Positions 15,576 through 37,907 of a DNA stretch of 37,907 bases are shown in pieces; position 1 is the stretch's first letter, and every line of letters starts with the position of its first letter. The position numbers were made by a program, and so were the translations under genes. The notes below the pieces were generated by a model. It was not told the DNA's origin, made no database searches, and saw nothing but the letters and a program-made list of their open reading frames with translations. The DNA is from Tortispora ganteri (taxonomy: Eukaryota), in contig PPNB01000027.1 in NCBI GenBank assembly GCA_003707115.1, forward strand, positions 62,001 through 99,907, given 5' to 3'.

Positions 15576-16946
15576 TTAAATAGTGGATTTCTTAGTAAAT
15601 TGCAGATAGCAAGAGTTCGAAGATATGGCGGTGGTGTAGCGATCCAAAGGCCTAAAATCGCACTTAGATGCACCATCTGCAATGCGAGTGGAAAACTCAC
15701 CATATATTTTGCGAATAGTTAATCGCATAACTAGTAGAGCGAGATGCTGACCAACACACATGCGAGATCCGGCACCGAAAGGCATCATGTAGCTGTACAT
15801 TTCCTTTGATGCGTCTTTCCACCTGTAAGGATTAAACAATTCGGCATCTTTTCCAAAAACTCTTTTGACCCTGTGCAAAGAGTATGGCTGAACCGAAACG
15901 ACAGTACCAGGATTAATAAAATACGAAAGAATGAACAACCCTTTTTCACCAACGACTCTTGGCTCAGACCCAGGAATTGGCGAATGAAGACGCAGAGTCT
16001 CAAGGATGCACCATTCACAAAGATTATCCTTTGGTATGTCACGAGGATGAGTAAAGGTCGGTTCAGACTCTATAGTTCGCTGGAGGTCAGCCTGAAGTTG
16101 AGGATTTGAAGAAACCTCATAACAGAGAAATGTTAAGGCCAGAGCGGTAGTGTCGTGCCCCGCAGAGATATGGTCCATAGCCTCACTAGCCACGAACAAT
16201 TTAGATAATCCTGATTCTTTTAGCTTCTGGATTAAGGAAAACTGAGCTGGGCAGGCCCATGTCGAAGAAACCAGGTTGAGAAGCCATGAGTCTGTAAATG
16301 AGTATGCATTAGAAACTGCAGAAGTTGCGGGCACCCAAGGCGCATAGCTAGTGAAAAACCATCGATTAAATGCTACAGAAAACTTCTCATTAACTGCATC
16401 TAATTCGGCGTCTGCCGGTTGTGGAGCTGACGGTCCAAGAGTGACTGCTAGAGCGGCTCTCATTGCAAGACGTTTAAAGAGACTGAGAACATTGAGTGAT
16501 GGTTTATTGTGTGAAGCGTATGCAATTGAATAAGTAAGCTCATCCACTGCCAAAGAGACTGCAGGCGATATGTTATTAATAATGTTTGAATTAGAGTAGA
16601 GAATCTGGTAGCGAGCTCGCGAAGTTCTATGAGGAATTCTATGTTTGATGGAAAAGGCATTCGGGGTGTTGTAGTTCTCAAAATTGTAGAAGTCAGATTT
16701 GTCCAAGTTAGCAATGTATATAGACTTAACTGCGTCTATATGTAAAATAGAGACTTCATTGGGCGCAATCTGGACTACTGGGCCATAAAGGAGATGAAAA
16801 TCGTTGAGTTTGGCATTGCGTTTTCCGAGGAAGGCGTAGATAAGGCCGATATTTACAAATTTTGCTGCAAAAGGGCCTGGAGCAATATATTTAAGTTTGT
16901 AGATAAGCACAAAGAAAAGGAAAATTGTTGTTAAAGCGAGGATCAT
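15576..16946 (-). CDS. Cytochrome P450 monooxygenase (membrane-anchored; substrate unknown)
   Basis: The first ATG at 16946 gives MILALTTIFLFFVLIYKL (TM anchor); YGPVVQIAPNEVS, I-helix AGHDTT, ExxR ETLR, FNPYRW and heme motif PFGAGSRMCVG. The track's start at 16970 is a GTG. Confidence 0.93.
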   Translation of the reverse strand: MILALTTIFLFFVLIYKLKYIAPGPFAAKFVNIGLIYAFLGKRNAKLNDFHLLYGPVVQIAPNEVSILHIDAVKSIYIANLDKSDFYNFENYNTPNAFSIKHRIPHRTSRARYQILYSNSNIINNISPAVSLAVDELTYSIAYASHNKPSLNVLSLFKRLAMRAALAVTLGPSAPQPADAELDAVNEKFSVAFNRWFFTSYAPWVPATSAVSNAYSFTDSWLLNLVSSTWACPAQFSLIQKLKESGLSKLFVASEAMDHISAGHDTTALALTFLCYEVSSNPQLQADLQRTIESEPTFTHPRDIPKDNLCEWCILETLRLHSPIPGSEPRVVGEKGLFILSYFINPGTVVSVQPYSLHRVKRVFGKDAELFNPYRWKDASKEMYSYMMPFGAGSRMCVGQHLALLVMRLTIRKIYGEFSTRIADGASKCDFRPLDRYTTAISSNSCYLQFTKKSTI

Positions 16947-18602: not shown

Positions 18603-19622
18603 ATGACTTCGTTTGTGTGTCCGCAATGCTCTAAACTGTTTGATCGCAAATCAAAATTAGACATTCACATTAGATCGCATACAAACGAACGTCCTTTTCA
18701 GTGCCACACTTGTGGTGCTAAGTTCAGACGCAATGCTCATCTCAAAATCCACATATCCTCCCACCACAACCACATTAAACCATTCACTTGTACTATCTGC
18801 AACAGCTCATTTGCCACAAAACAGCATTTAATACGGCATCAATCTTCACATTTACCAAAGAAGTTTCGATGTTCGTACCCGGATTGTGATATGTCCTTCT
18901 CTCAGGCTTCCCACCTTCGAAAACACATATGTACTGTGCACACACTCACAAAACCGTACCCTTGTGAAATTTGCAATAAATCCTTTGATTCTAATTATAG
19001 ACTACAAGCACACAAACGCAAAGTGCATTCACATAGTCAGAATTTTACTTGCGATTTGCTTATCGACCACCAGAAGTGCGGTAAGTCCTTCCCCACACTT
19101 TCGCAGCTCAGATCACATGTAGAATCTGAGCACCCACCGGTTTGTCGCCTTTGTAACAAATCTTTTAGCTCATATAAAGTCCTTTCACAGCATCTTAAAG
19201 TTCATGAATCTGATGCTAATAAGTTTCCGTGCCCTCATTGTTCAAAGGTCTTCACGCGAAAGTACAATCTCAAGGTCCATATCGACGCAGTTCACAGCGC
19301 TCTGAGGCCTTACAAGTGCGAGCAGTGTGAATCGTCTTTTGCATACAAACATCTGCTAACTACACATATGAAATCTCATTCAAATAAGTGTTCTGAACAT
19401 GAACAACGAAGCAGTTCAGAATCAACTACACCGGAAAGAAATAATGCTATCTCCCTCCTTACAGGCAATAGTTACAATCTTCGTCCCATACCGTGTATTT
19501 TCCCTAACTGCCAATACCGATTTACACGAAAATATGATCTGGAACGGCATCTCAACGCAGTACATTCTGACTCACAAAGTGTTCATAAAGATCCAGAAAG
19601 TCTAGAAATCCTACCAGAGTGA
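18603..19622 (+). CDS. PZF1: Transcription factor IIIA (5S rRNA), 10 C2H2 zinc fingers
   Basis: Nine tandem C2H2 fingers, a spacer ending ISLLTG, then a last finger CIFPNCQYRFTRKYDLERH; divergent from RPO26 as in S. cerevisiae. Confidence 0.85.
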   Translation: MTSFVCPQCSKLFDRKSKLDIHIRSHTNERPFQCHTCGAKFRRNAHLKIHISSHHNHIKPFTCTICNSSFATKQHLIRHQSSHLPKKFRCSYPDCDMSFSQASHLRKHICTVHTLTKPYPCEICNKSFDSNYRLQAHKRKVHSHSQNFTCDLLIDHQKCGKSFPTLSQLRSHVESEHPPVCRLCNKSFSSYKVLSQHLKVHESDANKFPCPHCSKVFTRKYNLKVHIDAVHSALRPYKCEQCESSFAYKHLLTTHMKSHSNKCSEHEQRSSSESTTPERNNAISLLTGNSYNLRPIPCIFPNCQYRFTRKYDLERHLNAVHSDSQSVHKDPESLEILPE

Positions 19623-20382
19623 AAACCTTTTTGAATCAAAACATGTATGTATTGATTGATCGGCAAGTCAACCCGGAAATTCTACAAACGAGGAACTCAT
19701 ACTGGACCTTTAAAACTCCCCGAATTATTAGCACTGAAACTTAGAATACAAATTGAAGGTAATAACGAATTGTTAGTTATTCCTTACAGAAGTATTCGGA
19801 AAGGAGTCTATTTGTCTGTAAGATCTTCAGAATTATTGTATAAGGTATGATCAATTCCTTAAAGAAAAACATGTCCCATTGAATCATATGCAATGAGATG
19901 TCTTTAATAGAGTACAAGACGAAAAGGAATTGAGAAAGAGTTGGTAAGTTACATGAACAAAAGTTGGTAATCATGTAAATAAAAGCCGATATAAGGAGCT
20001 AAGCTCGTGACTATTAAGCCGATAGCGTTAGAAGTGACACTATCAGCAAAGGTCGAAATAAGACTAGACATCAGAATCGAGAACGCATTAACAAAAGGTG
20101 AATTAGGCAAAACATTAGAATTTCAGAAATATCTAGTAGATTAAAAAAATATTGTTTCAAGGTACTTCAGCCTATTTAAATGATCAACATTTATCGCTAT
20201 TAAAGAAAGTAGAATAGTGACAGGTTAAACTACTAAAACGCCGTCATAGTAATACTTAAAACTTACCATAGCAACGATGCTACTTCTTATTTACGGTCAC
20301 TCTCTCCAGTCAGCAATGAACCTTGTTCCAATCTAATAAAACTCTCTTTTAGAAGAAAGGCGTTTACGCCTAGAAGTGTGTT

Positions 20383-20390
20383 TATATAAA
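20383..20390 (+). promoter_or_regulatory. TATA box upstream of the omega-GST gene
   Basis: TATATAAA about 65 nt upstream of ATG 20454. Confidence 0.5.
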
Positions 20391-20453
20391 GAAAGGATTT
20401 GAATTGCTGTTGTGATTTAGTCAATTGAAGTATTCAAATATATCTTTAAAAAA

Positions 20454-21497
20454 ATGCCACCGGTAGGTAGACTACAGCAGATTTTACATCAATTGCCTTT
20501 TGGCAGTAAAAGGCCAATGCTATATACTCTTCGAAAACTGACACTGACCGCCTATAAGCATACCTCCGTTGCTGATGAAATCTCCAAGAAAGGAGAGTTT
20601 GTCCGATCTGCTACTTCTTTCCATAATGTAATTTCTAAAGACTCAGAGTTCCCTCCAGAGAAGGATCGTTACCATCTCTATGTATCTTATGCATGTCCGT
20701 GGGCCACACGTGCTCTCATCACTCGTGAGCTTAAAGGACTTACTGACGTAATTTCTTTTAGTGTCGTCCATTGGCACATGGATGAGAATGGTTGGCGGTT
20801 TGCTGAACCGGATGAAGATCCCGACTGTATCCCTGATACTGTCAATGGCTTTAAACGTCTTCGTGAGCTCTACTTGCAACAGGATCCCGACTACACCGGC
20901 CGTGTGACTGTTCCGGTACTATATGACAAAAAGACCAAGAAGATCGTCAACAACGAGTCCTCAGAGGTAATCCGCATATTGTATACTGCTTTTGATGACT
21001 TGATCGATTCTAAGTATAAGGGTCTCAACTTTTTCCCCGAAAACTTGCAATCGCAGATCGACGAGCACAATGACTGGATCTATAACGATATCAATAATGG
21101 TGTTTACAAGTCTGGTTTTGCGACTACTCAGGAAGCGTACGAGGAGGCTGTCACGACTCTTTTCAAGAGCATGGATCGCGTCGAGAGCATTCTTGCAGAT
21201 TCGGATGGGCCTTACTTTTTAGGTAAGGATTTGACCGAGATTGATATTCGTTTGTTTCCTACTCTGATCCGCTTCGACTGCTGTTATGTCCAGCACTTCA
21301 AGTGCAACATCGGAACTATCAGGCATAATTATCCACATATTAACAAGTACATGAAAAACCTTTACTGGAACGTGCCTGGATTCAAGGAAGTGACGAATTT
21401 TAAGCATATTAAGTTCCACTACACCAAGTCGCACAAGCAAATCAATCCTTTAGGTATCACACCACTTGGTCCTATTCCCGATATCGAACCACTTTAA
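20454..21497 (+). CDS. ECM4: Omega-class GST / glutathionyl-hydroquinone reductase (Ecm4/Gto family); probable retainable in-frame intron 20463-20558
   Basis: RYHLYVSYACPWA active site, TVPVLYD, IVNNESSEVIR, INNGVYKSGFA, LIRFD and INPLGITPLGP. Confidence 0.93.
   Translation: MPPVGRLQQILHQLPFGSKRPMLYTLRKLTLTAYKHTSVADEISKKGEFVRSATSFHNVISKDSEFPPEKDRYHLYVSYACPWATRALITRELKGLTDVISFSVVHWHMDENGWRFAEPDEDPDCIPDTVNGFKRLRELYLQQDPDYTGRVTVPVLYDKKTKKIVNNESSEVIRILYTAFDDLIDSKYKGLNFFPENLQSQIDEHNDWIYNDINNGVYKSGFATTQEAYEEAVTTLFKSMDRVESILADSDGPYFLGKDLTEIDIRLFPTLIRFDCCYVQHFKCNIGTIRHNYPHINKYMKNLYWNVPGFKEVTNFKHIKFHYTKSHKQINPLGITPLGPIPDIEPL
20463..20558 (+). other. Probable 96-nt in-frame, stop-free intron encoding a PTS2
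   Basis: GTAGGT donor after codon 3, CACTGAC branch-like site (20542-20548), AAG acceptor 10 nt later. Spliced product MPPHTSVADEISKKGEF. Confidence 0.65.
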
Positions 21498-21584
21498 TCG
21501 GTACATGTTTAAGAAGCTGTACATTAATAAAAAGCTGTACATATATTTGAATAAGTTAGAATTTTAAGATACGAATATAATAGC

Positions 21585-23942
21585 TCACTTGCGGACCATT
21601 CTAGCACCGATCCAGGCAAAACGGTATGATCGCTGGTACCAATTTCGAAAACTTCTTCTTCCAGATAATCGAGGAGCAGTAGCCCATGATCCACCAAGAA
21701 CAACATTATGTTTACCGTCAAAGAAGTCTGCAGAGTATTCTGGGTAAAGCTCGTTCACTGTGAATCCTTCATGAGAGTCAAATACAGTGCTGGTCCATTC
21801 CCACACTCCTTGACCTCCAGGTCCGCTGATCCCCTCAACACAGTCAACGTTAGACGAAGGATGCCAGTGCTTAAAACCAACATTACTGTCTGACAAATCA
21901 TAGTAATTAGGGTTGTCATTCTGTAGCCGCTGTTGCTGAATCTTGTAAATTGCAAGCACTTCATGTTCTGTGGGAAACCTGAATTCGCCATTTTGGAAAT
22001 TTGCCATAAACTTCTCTAGTTCGTTATAACTGGCACAGACAGGCCAGTCTGATGCAATGAACTCTGAATCAAGATTTCCATCAACACATAATGGTGCGTC
22101 ACCAAAAAACGTTTTAACATATACATTTTGAAGATCCTCTGAGGCATTCCAACTTTCTGGCGGTTTGATAACGATACCGTCCCTTAGACAATTAAGAAGA
22201 AAGCTATAATATTGTCTGTTGGTTATTAGAGAAGGAGAAGCGCTGAATGGTGGCACAGTTACTGTACCTCTGCTTGGTTTCTCGTTGTCCCATCCCATTA
22301 ATCTACTTGGACGGCTTTCCGGACGATGATCTGCTTCATCAGGATCATCAATACCAATATCAATAACTGTAGCAGGTATCCTTATCCATTTCTGATTAGA
22401 TTTTGAGTGTTTCCTTTGTACAAAGCTCGGTTTAGGAACACCAGGAGGCGAGAGCTTTAGAGGAGATTGTAGCATCATGTACATCAATGTTTCAAGATGC
22501 ATTGCATCATGCTCATAACCAAGCCAAATGGCTCGTGCTGTCCGAGGAGATATTTTACCGGTGTTCTTAGTGAGTAACTGCCGCAAACGAGACCTGACCA
22601 AGTCTTGATATTGAAGTATATCATCGATAGACGGCCATTCTTTAGGTATGATCGAATGACTGTGCACTTTAGAGGGGTCATCAACATCCGGATCTATTCC
22701 TCTAGCAAATATATCCTGAAACCATGTGGGTTCAGTTGCTGGAGTGCCGGTATTGGCTCTGTTCAAGACAACATCGAGAAAACATGGGCTATGGCCCAGA
22801 TAAAAAATGATGGAGTTTCGCAAGTATATTGGTTTATCAAGATACATTGACTCCGGAGCCATTCTGCGTGTGACATAGTCCCACATATTATGCATATTGG
22901 ACCATTCCTCTAAATCAGGCAAATTTGCAGTAACAGAAGCCAAAGGTAGCCGACATTGAGGTTTATATACCAAATGAAGACTATATTCGCGCGAGCCATT
23001 GTACCAGTTACATGCCTCAGATAGTCCAGCTGTATCTAGTAATCGGGAAATGTCAGAAATATTGTACTTAAAGCTCTTTTCAATGTTTATCTCGGTCCCT
23101 GCCTCTAGCATACCGCCACCTATAGATTGCGGCAGAGGAATAGGCACTTTTGGCACCAGATATGCTTCATGGTATCCTTCATCAGCATTGTACTTGCCTA
23201 GATAGTCAAAATCACATGTGTCAAAGGCTTTTTCGCCAAGTACATGGTTGGCATGATTGAGACCGTTCAGAATAAATTGCGCTGTGAGTTTGTAAGAGTC
23301 ATTGTAGGCTTTGTAGACTGTTTCGGGATTGTTCCTGTGGTCAATTCCAATAAAAAACTGATCTGAAGTGCTTAATGCATTTTCAGTGAAATAATTTAAA
23401 AATTTAGCGGCCTCATCACGTGTAAAGTTGCCAATTGACGATCCTAGCCACAACAATGAAACAAAGGTGGGGTTATCTGATTTCAGCGATTTGATCCAAT
23501 CAATGCTGTCTTCATACAGACCTAATAAACCAGATAAATGAATATACTTGTATTTTCGAGGTGAAAGTTCCGAAAGACACCGATCTAGTTCTGTTTCAGA
23601 AACATCCAGGGCGTAATAGTGTACCGTCTTATTCGCGGCCTCCAAGGCGTCTAAGATCACGGATGTTTTGCGCAAGTTTCCAGAACCCAATTCCACCAAT
23701 GTTGATCCATCAGGTATTCGAGATGCAATCTCTTTTGATTGAGTATTAAGAATCTCGATTTCAGCATTGGTTAAGTAGTACTCGGATAAGTAAGTAATAT
23801 CTTCGAACAGCTGTAGTCCCTTTTCGTCATAGAGTAGCAACGTAGGCAATTGATTATGAGTCAGAGATTGTTTCAGGTCAGAAACAGATATAGCAGGTTT
23901 TTCAGAAGCCGATCTACGTATATCGATTATTTTTGCCCCCAT
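21585..23942 (-). CDS. EGT1: Ergothioneine biosynthesis protein Egt1 (EgtD-like histidine methyltransferase fused to EgtB-like DinB + FGE-sulfatase sulfoxide synthase)
   Basis: ATG at 23942 (MGAKIIDIRR); LPTLLLYDEKGLQLFEDIT, EYYLTNAEIEIL, VELGSGNLRKT, WLGSSIGNF, FYLGH, RGIDPDVDDP, Fe-binding EHDAMHLETL, VWEWT, YSADFFDGKHNVVLGGSWAT and FRNWYQ. Confidence 0.95.
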   Translation of the reverse strand: MGAKIIDIRRSASEKPAISVSDLKQSLTHNQLPTLLLYDEKGLQLFEDITYLSEYYLTNAEIEILNTQSKEIASRIPDGSTLVELGSGNLRKTSVILDALEAANKTVHYYALDVSETELDRCLSELSPRKYKYIHLSGLLGLYEDSIDWIKSLKSDNPTFVSLLWLGSSIGNFTRDEAAKFLNYFTENALSTSDQFFIGIDHRNNPETVYKAYNDSYKLTAQFILNGLNHANHVLGEKAFDTCDFDYLGKYNADEGYHEAYLVPKVPIPLPQSIGGGMLEAGTEINIEKSFKYNISDISRLLDTAGLSEACNWYNGSREYSLHLVYKPQCRLPLASVTANLPDLEEWSNMHNMWDYVTRRMAPESMYLDKPIYLRNSIIFYLGHSPCFLDVVLNRANTGTPATEPTWFQDIFARGIDPDVDDPSKVHSHSIIPKEWPSIDDILQYQDLVRSRLRQLLTKNTGKISPRTARAIWLGYEHDAMHLETLMYMMLQSPLKLSPPGVPKPSFVQRKHSKSNQKWIRIPATVIDIGIDDPDEADHRPESRPSRLMGWDNEKPSRGTVTVPPFSASPSLITNRQYYSFLLNCLRDGIVIKPPESWNASEDLQNVYVKTFFGDAPLCVDGNLDSEFIASDWPVCASYNELEKFMANFQNGEFRFPTEHEVLAIYKIQQQRLQNDNPNYYDLSDSNVGFKHWHPSSNVDCVEGISGPGGQGVWEWTSTVFDSHEGFTVNELYPEYSADFFDGKHNVVLGGSWATAPRLSGRRSFRNWYQRSYRFAWIGARMVRK

Positions 23943-24277
23943 TGAGTCTCCTTGAGAGTTCAATACAGAAAAATGAACTGTTATATACGTCAGGTCGATT
24001 ATATAATTAGAGTTTGATTTAAAGTTCGGCTAGGACTCATATGCGGCAAAAAGGATGTGTGATTAATACCCTTTGTAAAGTTGCATTTTTTATTAATTCA
24101 ATTGAAAAATAATATATAATTATATTACTTTCATATCACCTCCACCAATAAAAAGCCTTTTCTTCATAACCAATTACACTTAGTTTTGCTGTTTATAGTA
24201 ACGTCTCAACGCTCCCAAAACCTTCCAAGCAAACTAACTAAGTAAGTCTATATACGATACAGAAAAATATCTGCACA

Positions 24278-27319: not shown

Positions 27320-27686
27320 ATGGTAAGTAGATGGCCACATTAGTTCTCAAACCAATTAATGACTAACATTTATAGGCAGACAAATTACGTGATAAGCAGA
27401 ACTTGCAGTTGCTTCAGTCCAAACATATTGGAGTTGGACATGCGGACATCACTAGATAGTAAGTAGGAAACATACGAAATCCAATAGTAAATATGCATTT
27501 ACTAACTGCAACCTTTACAGCGAATGGGTGAATAATATTAAAAGAGATTCTTATGCGTCTTATATTGGCCACCAATCATTGTTAGATTACTTTACGGTTG
27601 CTTCTGGACAAACTCGCGCAGAGACGAAAGCTAAGTTTATAGAACAGATGGTTCAGCCAGTTGGTCCACCTCCTGCAAAAGATTGA
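27320..27686 (+). CDS. YSF3: SF3b subunit Ysf3/SF3B5; exons 27320-27322, 27376-27458, 27521-27686
   Basis: Spliced 83 aa: MADKLRDKQNLQLLQSKHIGVGHADITRYEWVNNIKRDSYASYIGHQSLLDYFTVASGQTRAETKAKFIEQMVQPVGPPPAKD. Introns: GTAAGT..GACTAAC..TAG (53 nt) and GTAAGT..TACTAAC..CAG (62 nt). Not in the ORF track. Confidence 0.95.
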
Positions 27687-35241: not shown

Positions 35242-37907
35242 TTATATTGTAGATCGCTGAATCCATTCATTTTTCGCTTCTTCGACGAACGATTCATATG
35301 TAGATTCGTCACGCAAATACGATTCAATGGAATCTCGTAACGCCTTTGCAGCATTGAGTTCACCGCCAAAGGAATATTCATCTATGTGGGAAAGAGATCG
35401 AGATGACTGGTAAAGTTCATTGGTTAGTAGAACGATCTCTCCGTCGTTCAATATTTGAGCAATGCACTTGCCACTGGAATGAATATACTGCGGATATCTA
35501 AATGCAACATTTCCCCACGAATATTGAATATTGTAGTCGCCATTGGTATATGCGGAGGCCGCGTCCATGTCTAAAATAAACCTGAACTTGCGCAGTACGT
35601 ACCTTTCGTAGAAGATAGGATCGGGAACAACACCGTTAATAGCTTCCAGTACAGGGAACTCTCTTTGTCTAGGTAACCTCAATAGCGTGCGTAACGGATT
35701 CTGCTCAGCTTGTACAACAGCTTCGTGCATCGGCACTTCCACTAGTTTTAGCCCGTATCTCTCAGCCGTCCTTAACCAGCCGTTTCTGGCGTCGTCAATG
35801 AGCTTCATTGTAGTATTCAGCCATTCAAGTCTAATGCCGAAACAGTTGTCAGGATTATGCACTCTGTCATAATGTATAGTTACTTTCTCTGGTCGGTACG
35901 AAGCTCGGCCAGGATCAACATCAATCTCCATGCTTTTGCTTAATACAACATCTATCGGCTCACCAGTGTTAGAGTTCAGAGGATGCAAACTCCTGGAATC
36001 CGAGTCTCCTAAGGAACTTACCGAAGTATGTGTATGATATGCTTGTTCATTTTGTTGCACACTAGCATCCAATGACAAATATCCAGGCTCTGGGCCTGTC
36101 CCAAAAGTGTTCTGGGGAGTTTTAGCTTTACCTTCAGCAACTAGTCTAGGACTGCCGCTGTCACTGGTCGCACTATTGATACTAGCACTTTCAGGACGAC
36201 TTGAGGTCGTAGTTAAATGTGGAGAAGTAGTTTGAGAACCCGTGTTTGTTACTACCGGCTGGTTTTTCTTGAACCATTGACCAATTATGCGGCTTCCAGT
36301 ACTAAGTTGATTCATGGACATATATTCAGGATTCAATTGGTAGAAGTAATGTCCGTCTAGAAACGGGTGCCGCTTGTCAACGTGCACAAAAAGGCCATCA
36401 GACATTAATTGGTTTCCATATTCAACGGCCTCATCTGCGTTCTCAATATCAGCAAAGTTTTTGACTAACCAAACTGTAAGTTCCGTTCCAGTGAAGCAAG
36501 ATCTGTGGAGTTTCATATGCCACCTCCGGTCAATGAAACGAAGACCCTTTTCTCCCTGTAGATCTTTAGCTAAAACATCTAGTTTGATATTCTTATTGAG
36601 CTTTAAAGAATCAGCATTGAATATAGAGATCTTCTTCTTCGTTTTGGTATCGTTACTTCTTTGCGTCTCAATGTTATCCATATCCAGAATTTGACGAATC
36701 ATAGCCCTGCGATCACCTGTATAAAATCTCACTTCATTCTCAGGATTGGTTATCGTTTTGGACTCTTTCTGTTTCTTTTTCTCTTCGGGCTTCATAAACT
36801 TTGCTCGTAAAAGTATGCTAATGAGCTTTCGAACGCCTTCAAGTTGAATTTCTTCAGTGCTCATCTTATCCCAACCCTCGTTATATGAAAGATGCGGTGC
36901 TTCAGTCTCTGGGGTTCCATATAAGACAAATCTCGCGGTCCAATATCGGTACTTCTCGAGCCCATTAGAGTATCCGGCAAGCTGCTGATCCATTCGGTTC
37001 CAATTAAGACTTGAGCACAGCAGACCTTGGAATTCAGTAACTTTTTCTTCCATTCGCTGCCCAATATCAGATTGCATAGAGAAGGAATATCGCATTGGGT
37101 GGTTAAGCAATTCATCCATATTCCGTTTTCTGTAAACTTGCACAGAAACATTATTTCCCTGATCATAAGATATTCGGTGAACTTGGCTCCCTGCAAAAAG
37201 ATATACACGCACGTTAGTGCTATCTTTAGACACATATGACGTTATTGAGCTAGGATCACCGTCCATTTTCCGGCTAGATTCAATTTGACGCACTGTAGAC
37301 CCGGTAGATATCTGGAATCCATATCTTAAACGCATGCCAACCATTTCACGAATAAGCATAGTAGTGGTCATTTCTTCAGCAAGATCAGGTTCAATAGACA
37401 GATCGTATACCTGGACAGTAAAATTGTAATTCAATTGGGGTTCGGTCGGGAACATATTGACGTTAAGCGGAAGTAAGGCAGGGTGAAGCAATGAGGTCCA
37501 TTTAATCGCACGCTTACCTCGAGTACGACCTTCTGCATATATGTGTTCCCAGCGTCCTTGTTGAGAGCGTCTATATATCTGTTTGCTCGCCCGAGATATA
37601 TTAGGAATGACAGTCCAGAGAGGGTTGTCCATTACAGATTTTAGCTTTTCATTTCTCAACTCCAGTGATCTAGATAGTAAATTCGTAGAAGATTGAACAC
37701 GACTCACACCTCCGCGAATTTTTCTATGATTACTCGAAGGAACAGATACAGGAGCCCTCAAGGAAGTTTCCGACCTGAAACTTTTTGATTTTTTAGAGTT
37801 AGGACTTCTACTAAGATCCATGGTGGTCTGTAAATCTTGTCCCTGAGAACTTGGAGTATATGATTTTGTAGGAATGGCGCGTTCATGCGAGATATTCTCA
37901 TCTAAAT
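35242..37907 (-). CDS. IML1: Iml1/DEPDC5 (SEACIT/GATOR1 subunit), 3' part; continues past the right edge
   Basis: The frame is open to the window end. KWTSLLHPALLPL, NWNRMDQQLAG, DEP domain DRRWH...CFTGTELTVWL...HPFLDGHYFY, HYDRVHNPDNCFGIRLEW and QYIHSSG. Confidence 0.93.
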   Translation of the reverse strand, partial: LDENISHERAIPTKSYTPSSQGQDLQTTMDLSRSPNSKKSKSFRSETSLRAPVSVPSSNHRKIRGGVSRVQSSTNLLSRSLELRNEKLKSVMDNPLWTVIPNISRASKQIYRRSQQGRWEHIYAEGRTRGKRAIKWTSLLHPALLPLNVNMFPTEPQLNYNFTVQVYDLSIEPDLAEEMTTTMLIREMVGMRLRYGFQISTGSTVRQIESSRKMDGDPSSITSYVSKDSTNVRVYLFAGSQVHRISYDQGNNVSVQVYRKRNMDELLNHPMRYSFSMQSDIGQRMEEKVTEFQGLLCSSLNWNRMDQQLAGYSNGLEKYRYWTARFVLYGTPETEAPHLSYNEGWDKMSTEEIQLEGVRKLISILLRAKFMKPEEKKKQKESKTITNPENEVRFYTGDRRAMIRQILDMDNIETQRSNDTKTKKKISIFNADSLKLNKNIKLDVLAKDLQGEKGLRFIDRRWHMKLHRSCFTGTELTVWLVKNFADIENADEAVEYGNQLMSDGLFVHVDKRHPFLDGHYFYQLNPEYMSMNQLSTGSRIIGQWFKKNQPVVTNTGSQTTSPHLTTTSSRPESASINSATSDSGSPRLVAEGKAKTPQNTFGTGPEPGYLSLDASVQQNEQAYHTHTSVSSLGDSDSRSLHPLNSNTGEPIDVVLSKSMEIDVDPGRASYRPEKVTIHYDRVHNPDNCFGIRLEWLNTTMKLIDDARNGWLRTAERYGLKLVEVPMHEAVVQAEQNPLRTLLRLPRQREFPVLEAINGVVPDPIFYERYVLRKFRFILDMDAASAYTNGDYNIQYSWGNVAFRYPQYIHSSGKCIAQILNDGEIVLLTNELYQSSRSLSHIDEYSFGGELNAAKALRDSIESYLRDESTYESFVEEAKNEWIQRSTI

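Follow-up and report, generated by a model that had tools for sequence, protein, structure and literature searches.

We analyzed a 37,907-nucleotide (nt) stretch of the Tortispora ganteri genome (GenBank assembly GCA_003707115.1, contig PPNB01000027.1, positions 62,001 to 99,907 of the forward strand), which we refer to as the window and in which all positions are counted from its first letter. Our subject is a glutathione S-transferase (GST) gene whose first codons spell a candidate type 2 peroxisomal targeting signal (PTS2). Positions 20454 to 21497 of the plus strand form a single unbroken open reading frame (ORF) of 347 codons. The encoded protein matches the Pfam families GST_N_2 (5.8e-10) and GST_C_2 (1.5e-14), and its matches among solved structures are 3PPU (5e-111), Trametes GST Xi 1 (6GC9; 2e-107), Saccharomyces cerevisiae Gto2/Ecm4 (5LKB; 1.6e-97), and Escherichia coli YqjG (3R3E; 1.9e-87). 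Judged by these similarities, the product is a Xi-class (Ecm4/Gto-like) GST, a relative of the S-glutathionyl-hydroquinone reductases. An earlier note on this DNA had labeled it an omega-GST; the placement in the Ecm4/Gto-type family stands on both the Pfam matches and the solved relatives, and the finer class is more precisely Xi than omega because the nearest solved relatives are Xi-class GSTs. The CPWA active-site motif is invariant in all 30 sequences of a MAFFT alignment comprising this GST and 29 homologs, a non-random sample picked from the 120 best matches to span long and short forms. The closest named relative is the 340-residue Tortispora caseinolytica protein P0001, with which BLASTP aligns 304 residues, 287 of them identical (94%). 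The C-terminus reads -EPL and carries no peroxisomal targeting signal of type 1 (PTS1).

The conserved fold does not begin at the first codon. BLASTP pairs the protein with its T. caseinolytica ortholog from residue 44 onward, and the solved Xi-class GSTs align from residues 36-45. An AlphaFold2 model built on the 30-sequence alignment has a mean predicted local distance difference test score (pLDDT) of 80.7 and a predicted TM score of 0.80; the core is confident from about residue 50, mostly above 80, whereas pLDDT stays below 50 for residues 1-44. In agreement with the alignments, the N-terminal extension is an appendage outside the fold, as a targeting peptide should be. Since the model contains no confident structure for residues 1-44, it is uninformative as to a helix at the PTS2. 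The coordinates of the features discussed here are collected in Table 1.

Table 1. Features of the GST gene, introns, and neighboring genes in the window.
Feature	Position	Strand	Remarks
TATA-like element TATATAAA	20383-20390	+	64 nt upstream of ATG1; putative promoter element
ATG1, ORF start	20454-20456	+	A-rich context AAAAAAATGC, A at -3
N-terminal extension, residues 1-43	20454-20582	+	Outside the conserved fold; basic; first acidic residue is 41
PTS2 nonapeptide RLQQILHQL, residues 6-14	20469-20495	+	Fits (R/K)(L/V/I)x5(H/Q)(L/A)
Candidate 96-nt intron of the earlier note, codons 4-35	20463-20558	+	GTAGGT ... CACTGAC + 10 nt ending AAG; most likely plain coding
ATG2 (Met22), in frame	20517-20519	+	25 residues before GEF anchor; weak context, C at -3
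GST core (residues 44-347) and stop	20583-21497	+	Pfam, 94% identity to P0001, 3PPU match, high pLDDT from about residue 50
Active-site motif C81-P82-W83-A84	20694-20705	+	Invariant in 30-sequence alignment
LOS1 intron	3960-4060	-	GTAAGT + ACTAAC; splicing restores a sensible N-terminus
AFI1/SPA-type gene intron	8595-8641	-	GTAAGT + ACTAAC; splicing restores a sensible N-terminus
SF3b5/YSF3-like gene	27320-27640	+	
Its two introns	27323-27375, 27459-27520	+	GTAAGT + ACTAAC; splicing restores a sensible N-terminus
Cytochrome P450 frame	15576-16946	-	Likely start at 16946
Proline-rich ORF, 209 residues	16952-17584	-	No Pfam match
EGT1-type ergothioneine synthase	21585-23942	-	Methyltransf_33 + DinB_2 + FGE-sulfatase
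IML1/DEPDC5-like ORF	35242-37821		
Intron-like 70-mer within it	35952-36021	-	GTAAGT..CTCTAAC..TAG

The nonapeptide RLQQILHQL lies near the N-terminus, on the exposed segment outside the fold, and is a full match to the PTS2 consensus given in passages of PMC7214817 and PMC3798809, as the earlier note had stated with the same coordinates. Scanning the window's 18 ORFs, 10,483 residues in all, with this loose consensus gave four matches, three of which start with K and lie at residues 86, 485, and 759 of their proteins. The GST match is the only N-terminal one of the four, and the only one to fit the stricter pattern R-[LVIQ]-x-x-[LVIHQ]-[LSGAK]-x-[HQ]-[LAF], which reportedly goes back to Petriv et al. 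in 2004. We then shuffled residues 2-46 of the protein 100,000 times. A loose match appeared anywhere in 3.8% of the shuffles, and a match starting at residues 4-9 appeared in 0.64% under the loose and in 0.043% under the strict pattern. The match is unlikely to be due to chance.

Further evidence comes from the homologs. Among the 120 best matches, 119 start with methionine and contain CPW; we classed the 51 with CPW at residues 70-140 as long forms. Seven of the 51 long forms carry a consensus PTS2, in every case starting at residue 7: four Aspergillus proteins (one group) and those of Exophiala mesophila, Cenococcum geophilum, and Eremomyces bilateralis. If position 9 may also be I or F and position 2 also Q, the count rises to 13; the bare skeleton R-x6-[HQ]-[LAFI] occurs in 24 long forms, and in 23 of these its first residue falls at 4-9. 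Shuffling the same N-termini 2000 times gave means of 0.73 (maximum 5) for the consensus, 1.44 for the wider pattern, and 4.03 for the skeleton, falling to 0.15, 0.31, and 0.87, respectively, when position was restricted. In the MAFFT alignment, R6 to L14 of the T. ganteri protein stand column for column with motifs of the orthologs, RVSQLAQHL being one example. That Eurotiales, Chaetothyriales, two Dothideomycete lineages, and T. ganteri all have a signal in this one register is hard to credit to chance, and because the orthologs share it in this register, we argue that codons 4-35 of the T. ganteri gene are translated.

Long forms with a PTS2 or near-PTS2 were seen in the genera Aspergillus, Exophiala, Rhinocladiella, Cenococcum, and Eremomyces. 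PTS1-type C-termini also recur sporadically, in one of 120 and in two of 150 homologs (P0025, ARL; P0167, SKL; P0225, SKL). Peroxisomal targeting thus seems to arise repeatedly in the Xi-class GST family, through either signal. The Orbiliomycete homologs P0004, P0006, and P0008 have a hydrophobic, transmembrane-like stretch in the extension (for example, VVVFAALVAGLIAVLF) with neither a PTS2 nor a presequence, a hint that the enzyme may have a form anchored in a membrane.

The homologs also share an arrangement of methionines that bears on how a form without the signal might be made. Of the 120 homologs, 118 contain the anchor G-x-[FY]-x-R, which reads GEF at its start in T. ganteri. In the 68 short forms, translation begins 8-32 residues ahead of this anchor (mode 19). 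Among 50 long forms, 46 carry an internal in-frame methionine 8-35 residues ahead of it (mode 19 again), the other four being T. caseinolytica and three Orbiliomycete proteins. One gene giving a long organellar form and, via the second in-frame methionine, a short form looks like a habit of the family. In T. ganteri, Met22, which falls within this 8-35 range, is a candidate start for a short form lacking the signal.

As for the long form, no ATG occurs between the TATA-like element and position 20454, so ATG1 would be the first AUG of the main mRNA. Judged against what is generally known of yeast start sites, its context is a strong one. A search of sequencing runs listed DNA contig sets of two near-identical strains and no RNA set. 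These two strains confirm the sequence of this region: over positions 19600-24000 (4401 nt) they show 13 and 14 single-letter differences from the window and no insertions or deletions, and between 20449 and 21560 there are no differences at all. Differences are too few for this comparison to be informative about selection on the segment. Seven of the 16 variable positions lie within 20112-20448, upstream of the GST start; 20435 and 20448 fall just before ATG1, and none falls within the 1044-nt ORF.

What we observed is an open frame that carries the motif, orthologs that keep the motif's position, and a family with a two-methionine architecture. The explanation that we favor, at a probability of roughly one half, is that the GST is made with a translated N-terminal PTS2 extension that directs it to peroxisomes, that any short form comes from Met22, and that the extension is an ancestral or recurrent element of fungal Xi-class GSTs. 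Translation would start at ATG1 and add an unstructured, basic extension of about 43 residues; residues 6-14 would be bound by Pex7, leading to import of the enzyme into peroxisomes, where it would fill the role held in S. cerevisiae by the PTS1-bearing paralog Gto1. A cytosolic form lacking the signal, if made, would be initiated at Met22 on transcripts that start downstream of ATG1. Splicing would not be needed for either isoform.

Several observations weigh against this explanation. The first concerns the short form itself: because the context of ATG1 is strong and that of ATG2 weak, it would need transcripts starting between the two ATGs and, therefore, a separate transcript start. The second concerns the statistics of the homologs, which overstate independence because many of the PTS2-bearing sequences are from related Aspergillus. 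In a representative set at 50% identity (150 listed, 125 with a methionine start and a CPW-type motif, 16 of them long forms), only one of the 16 long forms has a PTS2. The remaining observations concern the mitochondrion, the nearest relative, and the codon usage of the segment, and we take them up together with the explanations that they suggest.

Many of the other long-form extensions resemble mitochondrial presequences, and the T. ganteri extension is basic and free of acidic residues up to residue 40, as presequences are; its first 46 residues contain eight K and R and two D and E. The extension may thus act as a presequence for mitochondria, or as a signal that is ambiguous between mitochondria and peroxisomes; the long form would then be mitochondrial, with the PTS2-like helix serving as, or merely happening to coincide with, the amphipathic element needed for matrix targeting. 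Long forms that have no PTS2 often carry Ser/Thr/Arg-rich, acid-free extensions of the presequence type, and even the PTS2-bearing orthologs look presequence-like between the motif and the internal methionine. In addition, L7-Q-Q-I-L11 fits the Tom20-binding pattern of hydrophobic-x-x-hydrophobic-hydrophobic. A basic, acid-free N-terminus is compatible with a presequence, but an extension bearing a PTS2 has the same features. Presequences, moreover, are seldom conserved by position, whereas here R at position 1, H/Q at 8, and L/I/F at 9 of the motif recur in a fixed register at residues 6-15 in 23 of 51 long forms, against an expectation of 0.87, and the organellar member of the family described from yeast is peroxisomal. 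We regard a mitochondrial long form as unlikely, though it is the strongest competitor of the favored explanation.

The nearest relative offers the PTS2 no support. At the corresponding place, T. caseinolytica P0001 reads RLNRRDVQQ, which is not a PTS2, and its first 36 residues are otherwise unalignable despite the 94% identical core. Either the signal is not maintained in T. caseinolytica or the gene model is wrong at its 5' end. The codon usage of the T. ganteri segment from codon 4 to codon 35 speaks against ordinary coding sequence. Its frame-0 log-likelihood of -1.83 lies below that of 99.5% of 574 coding windows and is of the kind usually seen in non-coding windows free of stops (the scores of the other two frames, 1 and 2, are far worse, at -23 and -17), although scoring over 32 codons does not tell non-coding DNA apart from a targeting peptide of unusual composition. 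An atypical composition of this kind can, but need not, account for the score.

These two findings count in favor of a coincidental PTS2 and an extension that has no targeting role and is instead a constitutive intron or an untranslated leader, with the true start farther downstream, or a neutral, fast-drifting tail. The open frame, too, could be fortuitous, since in any one frame 16.9% of 96-nt windows of non-coding DNA contain no stop (a chance to be multiplied by one third for the length being a multiple of three), as could the motif, given the 3.8% of shuffled N-termini with a loose match somewhere. Against coincidence stand orthologs of several fungal classes that have the motif at the same positions and in register, and the chance of only 0.043% for a strict match at residues 4-9. 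ATG1, moreover, is the first AUG past the TATA-like box and lies in a good context, and the splice signals are too weak to mark an intron that is constitutively removed in the T. ganteri genome. Of the explanations weighed here, coincidence appears to us the least probable.

The quality of those splice signals is central to the earlier note, which had proposed that codons 4-35 are an intron. Its description of the segment is correct in every sequence detail. ATG-CCA-CCG is indeed followed by 96 nt, or 32 codons, with no stop; GTAGGT stands at 20463-20468, CACTGAC at 20542-20548, and an AAG that ends at 20558. This acceptor ends 10 nt past the branch-like 7-mer, the same spacing as in the LOS1 intron (TACTAAC + ATATAAAAAG), and the donor and branch site are, as the note had remarked, weaker than those of the other four introns in the window. 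All four of these have GTAAGT and [T/G]ACTAAC, their GC content is 0.32 each, and none has a length divisible by three. With GTAGGT in place of GTAAGT and ACTGAC in place of ACTAAC, the segment departs at both sites from all four local introns, small though that sample is. Its GC content of 0.406 is close to that of coding DNA (0.420; non-ORF DNA, 0.375) and unlike that of each real intron.

To see how often such signals occur within continuous ORFs, we searched those of 14 genes, 29,484 nt in total, with an equally lax pattern consisting of GTRNGT, CTRAY, and the first AG 5-30 nt farther on, with a total length of 40-300 nt. This gave 33 occurrences from 21 donors, with a length divisible by three in 12 of them; 20 of the 21 donors lie outside the GST gene, in 28.4 kb of continuous ORF. 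A tighter pattern, GTANGT with CTRAC, retains six donors in the same ORFs, five of them outside the GST gene. The splice-like signals of the segment do not exceed chance. A good local example of such signals arising by chance in coding DNA is the 70-mer of the IML1/DEPDC5-like ORF, which lies between the DEP and DEPDC5_CTD domains and is not spliceable because its removal breaks the frame. A segment that is stop-free and in frame is also what any plain coding sequence would show. Because the donor and branch site differ from those of all four introns, signals as good are common in ORFs, and the GC content is coding-like, the evidence leans against the segment being an intron, and we consider this proposal unsupported and unlikely. 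As a separate candidate, an upstream exon spliced onto the GST was rejected: between 19600 and 20600 on the plus strand there is no pair of GTAAGT, GTATGT, or GTGAGT with CTAAC.

The earlier note had gone further and suggested that one gene yields two isoforms through this segment, with the spliced form being cytosolic and the unspliced form being a PTS2-bearing peroxisomal enzyme. The idea of two isoforms from one gene fits the family, given the internal methionine of 46 of 50 long forms, but the splicing route to them is unsupported. A weak in-frame intron used as a switch would account for the GT..AG ends, the CTRAC-like branch site, the LOS1-like spacing, and the stop-free length of 3 x 32 nt. 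Its place just after the start codon is also typical here, the first intron of the YSF3-like gene directly following the ATG, and the spliced product, MPP joined to HTSV..., would have its first residue 14 positions ahead of GEF, a distance also seen among natural short forms (13-20 is common). Furthermore, P0001 has no internal methionine, so T. caseinolytica would need another route to a short form. Against this stand the mismatch of GTAGGT and ACTGAC with the verified introns, the equal or better signals at 20 other ORF donors, the 70-mer among them, and a GC content above that of any real intron; the in-frame, stop-free property would already be explained if the segment codes for a conserved signal. 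The T. caseinolytica model, in which residue 4 is Ala and not Val, would also have no phase-0 GT donor after codon 3. A splicing switch in T. ganteri strikes us as doubtful, and less likely than a mitochondrial long form.

One homolog model might extend such a switch beyond T. ganteri. In Aspergillus nidulans FGSC A4 P0009, alone among the 120 homolog models, MFLVLRRANQL runs straight into TDISKKITDW at the core, as if an intron had removed the rest; the model skips about 37 residues, covering the remainder of the PTS2 along with the linker and the internal methionine, that are spelled out in its close relatives P0014 and P0018. This join may reflect an annotated intron inside the targeting extension. 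That P0009 and the T. ganteri segment are both instances of an old, conserved, splicing-controlled PTS2 toggle in fungal Xi-class GSTs is a conjecture that we consider quite improbable.

We compared the favored arrangement, a translated PTS2 extension with a putative second start at Met22, with known systems. According to passages in PMC7642143 and PMC10565873, S. cerevisiae Gto1 reaches peroxisomes by way of a PTS1 that Pex5 and Pex9 recognize, in agreement with what the earlier note had stated of its location. Gto1, Gto2/Ecm4, and Gto3 (omega-like/Xi-class) belong to the same family as the T. ganteri GST, with CPWA and the GST_N_2/GST_C_2 fold, and supply the peroxisomal thiol-transferase of S. 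cerevisiae; Gto1, however, is a paralog of its own with a PTS1, while the T. ganteri GST ends in -EPL and has its PTS2 at the N-terminus. More similar are the long Xi-class GSTs of Pezizomycotina (the Aspergillus versicolor group, E. mesophila, C. geophilum, and E. bilateralis), which likewise have an N-terminal PTS2 or near-PTS2. In these proteins, the PTS2 starts at residue 7 and is followed by an acid-poor linker of 20-35 residues and then the core. Their internal methionine lies about 19 residues before GEF, whereas Met22 of T. ganteri lies farther away and the ITDW motif is missing. We found no report on the localization of the Pezizomycotina long forms in the open-access literature.

Splicing does generate a PTS2 elsewhere. 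In Candida albicans, Yarrowia, and Lipomyces, 6-phosphogluconate dehydrogenase (GND) acquires one by alternative 3' splice sites, according to passages in PMC7491326; the earlier note was right to cite the C. albicans case as alternative splicing, which proceeds through these sites and not by intron retention. GND resembles the proposal for T. ganteri in that one gene of a budding yeast gives a cytosolic and a PTS2-bearing peroxisomal isoform. It differs in that its intron, in the same partial account, is a real one proven by junction reads, whereas the signals of the T. ganteri segment are weak and its splicing is hypothetical. The closest precedent for a splicing switch is S. cerevisiae PTC7, whose retained intron is in frame, stop-free, and translated, and adds an element that alters localization; the sites of several PTC7 introns match the consensus perfectly, and RNA-seq documents these introns, again as far as passages in PMC7491326 describe them. 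The element added in PTC7 is a transmembrane helix and not a PTS2. Two other proteins, A. nidulans IdpA and the PTS2-bearing Hsp70 of watermelon, are dually targeted by means of two in-frame starts or alternative transcription starts. Their long form with the signal and short form from a downstream methionine match the two-methionine layout of 46 of 50 Xi-class long forms, although use of the second start in the GSTs is putative and deduced from their architecture.

The surroundings of the GST gene provided some additional observations. The EGT1-type ergothioneine synthase gene lies tail to tail with the GST gene, 87 nt from its stop codon, such that two thiol-redox genes adjoin. The small SF3b5/YSF3-like gene, with introns of 53 and 62 nt, would escape an ORF list alone. 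The proline-rich ORF lies immediately upstream of the cytochrome P450 frame, overlaps the P450 open frame in another frame, and is a candidate gene; at its likely start, the P450 has a methionine followed by a hydrophobic anchor. An Rfam search of the window matched no family.

Known PTS2 cargoes are few, and the entry of glutathione-dependent repair enzymes into the peroxisome matrix is an open topic, as a passage in PMC10565873 puts it. In the open-access literature, with supplementary fungal peroxisome proteome tables lying outside that scope, we found no description of a PTS2 on a member of the Ecm4/Gto family. For annotation of the Xi-class GSTs, a practical rule would be to keep the upstream methionine. 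If the favored explanation is true, a PTS2 takes the Ecm4/Gto family to peroxisomes both in a budding yeast that branched off early and in several lineages of Pezizomycotina, with one gene doing the work of two, and the same enzyme would have swapped import pathways in the course of evolution, since Saccharomyces uses a PTS1 on a separate paralog.

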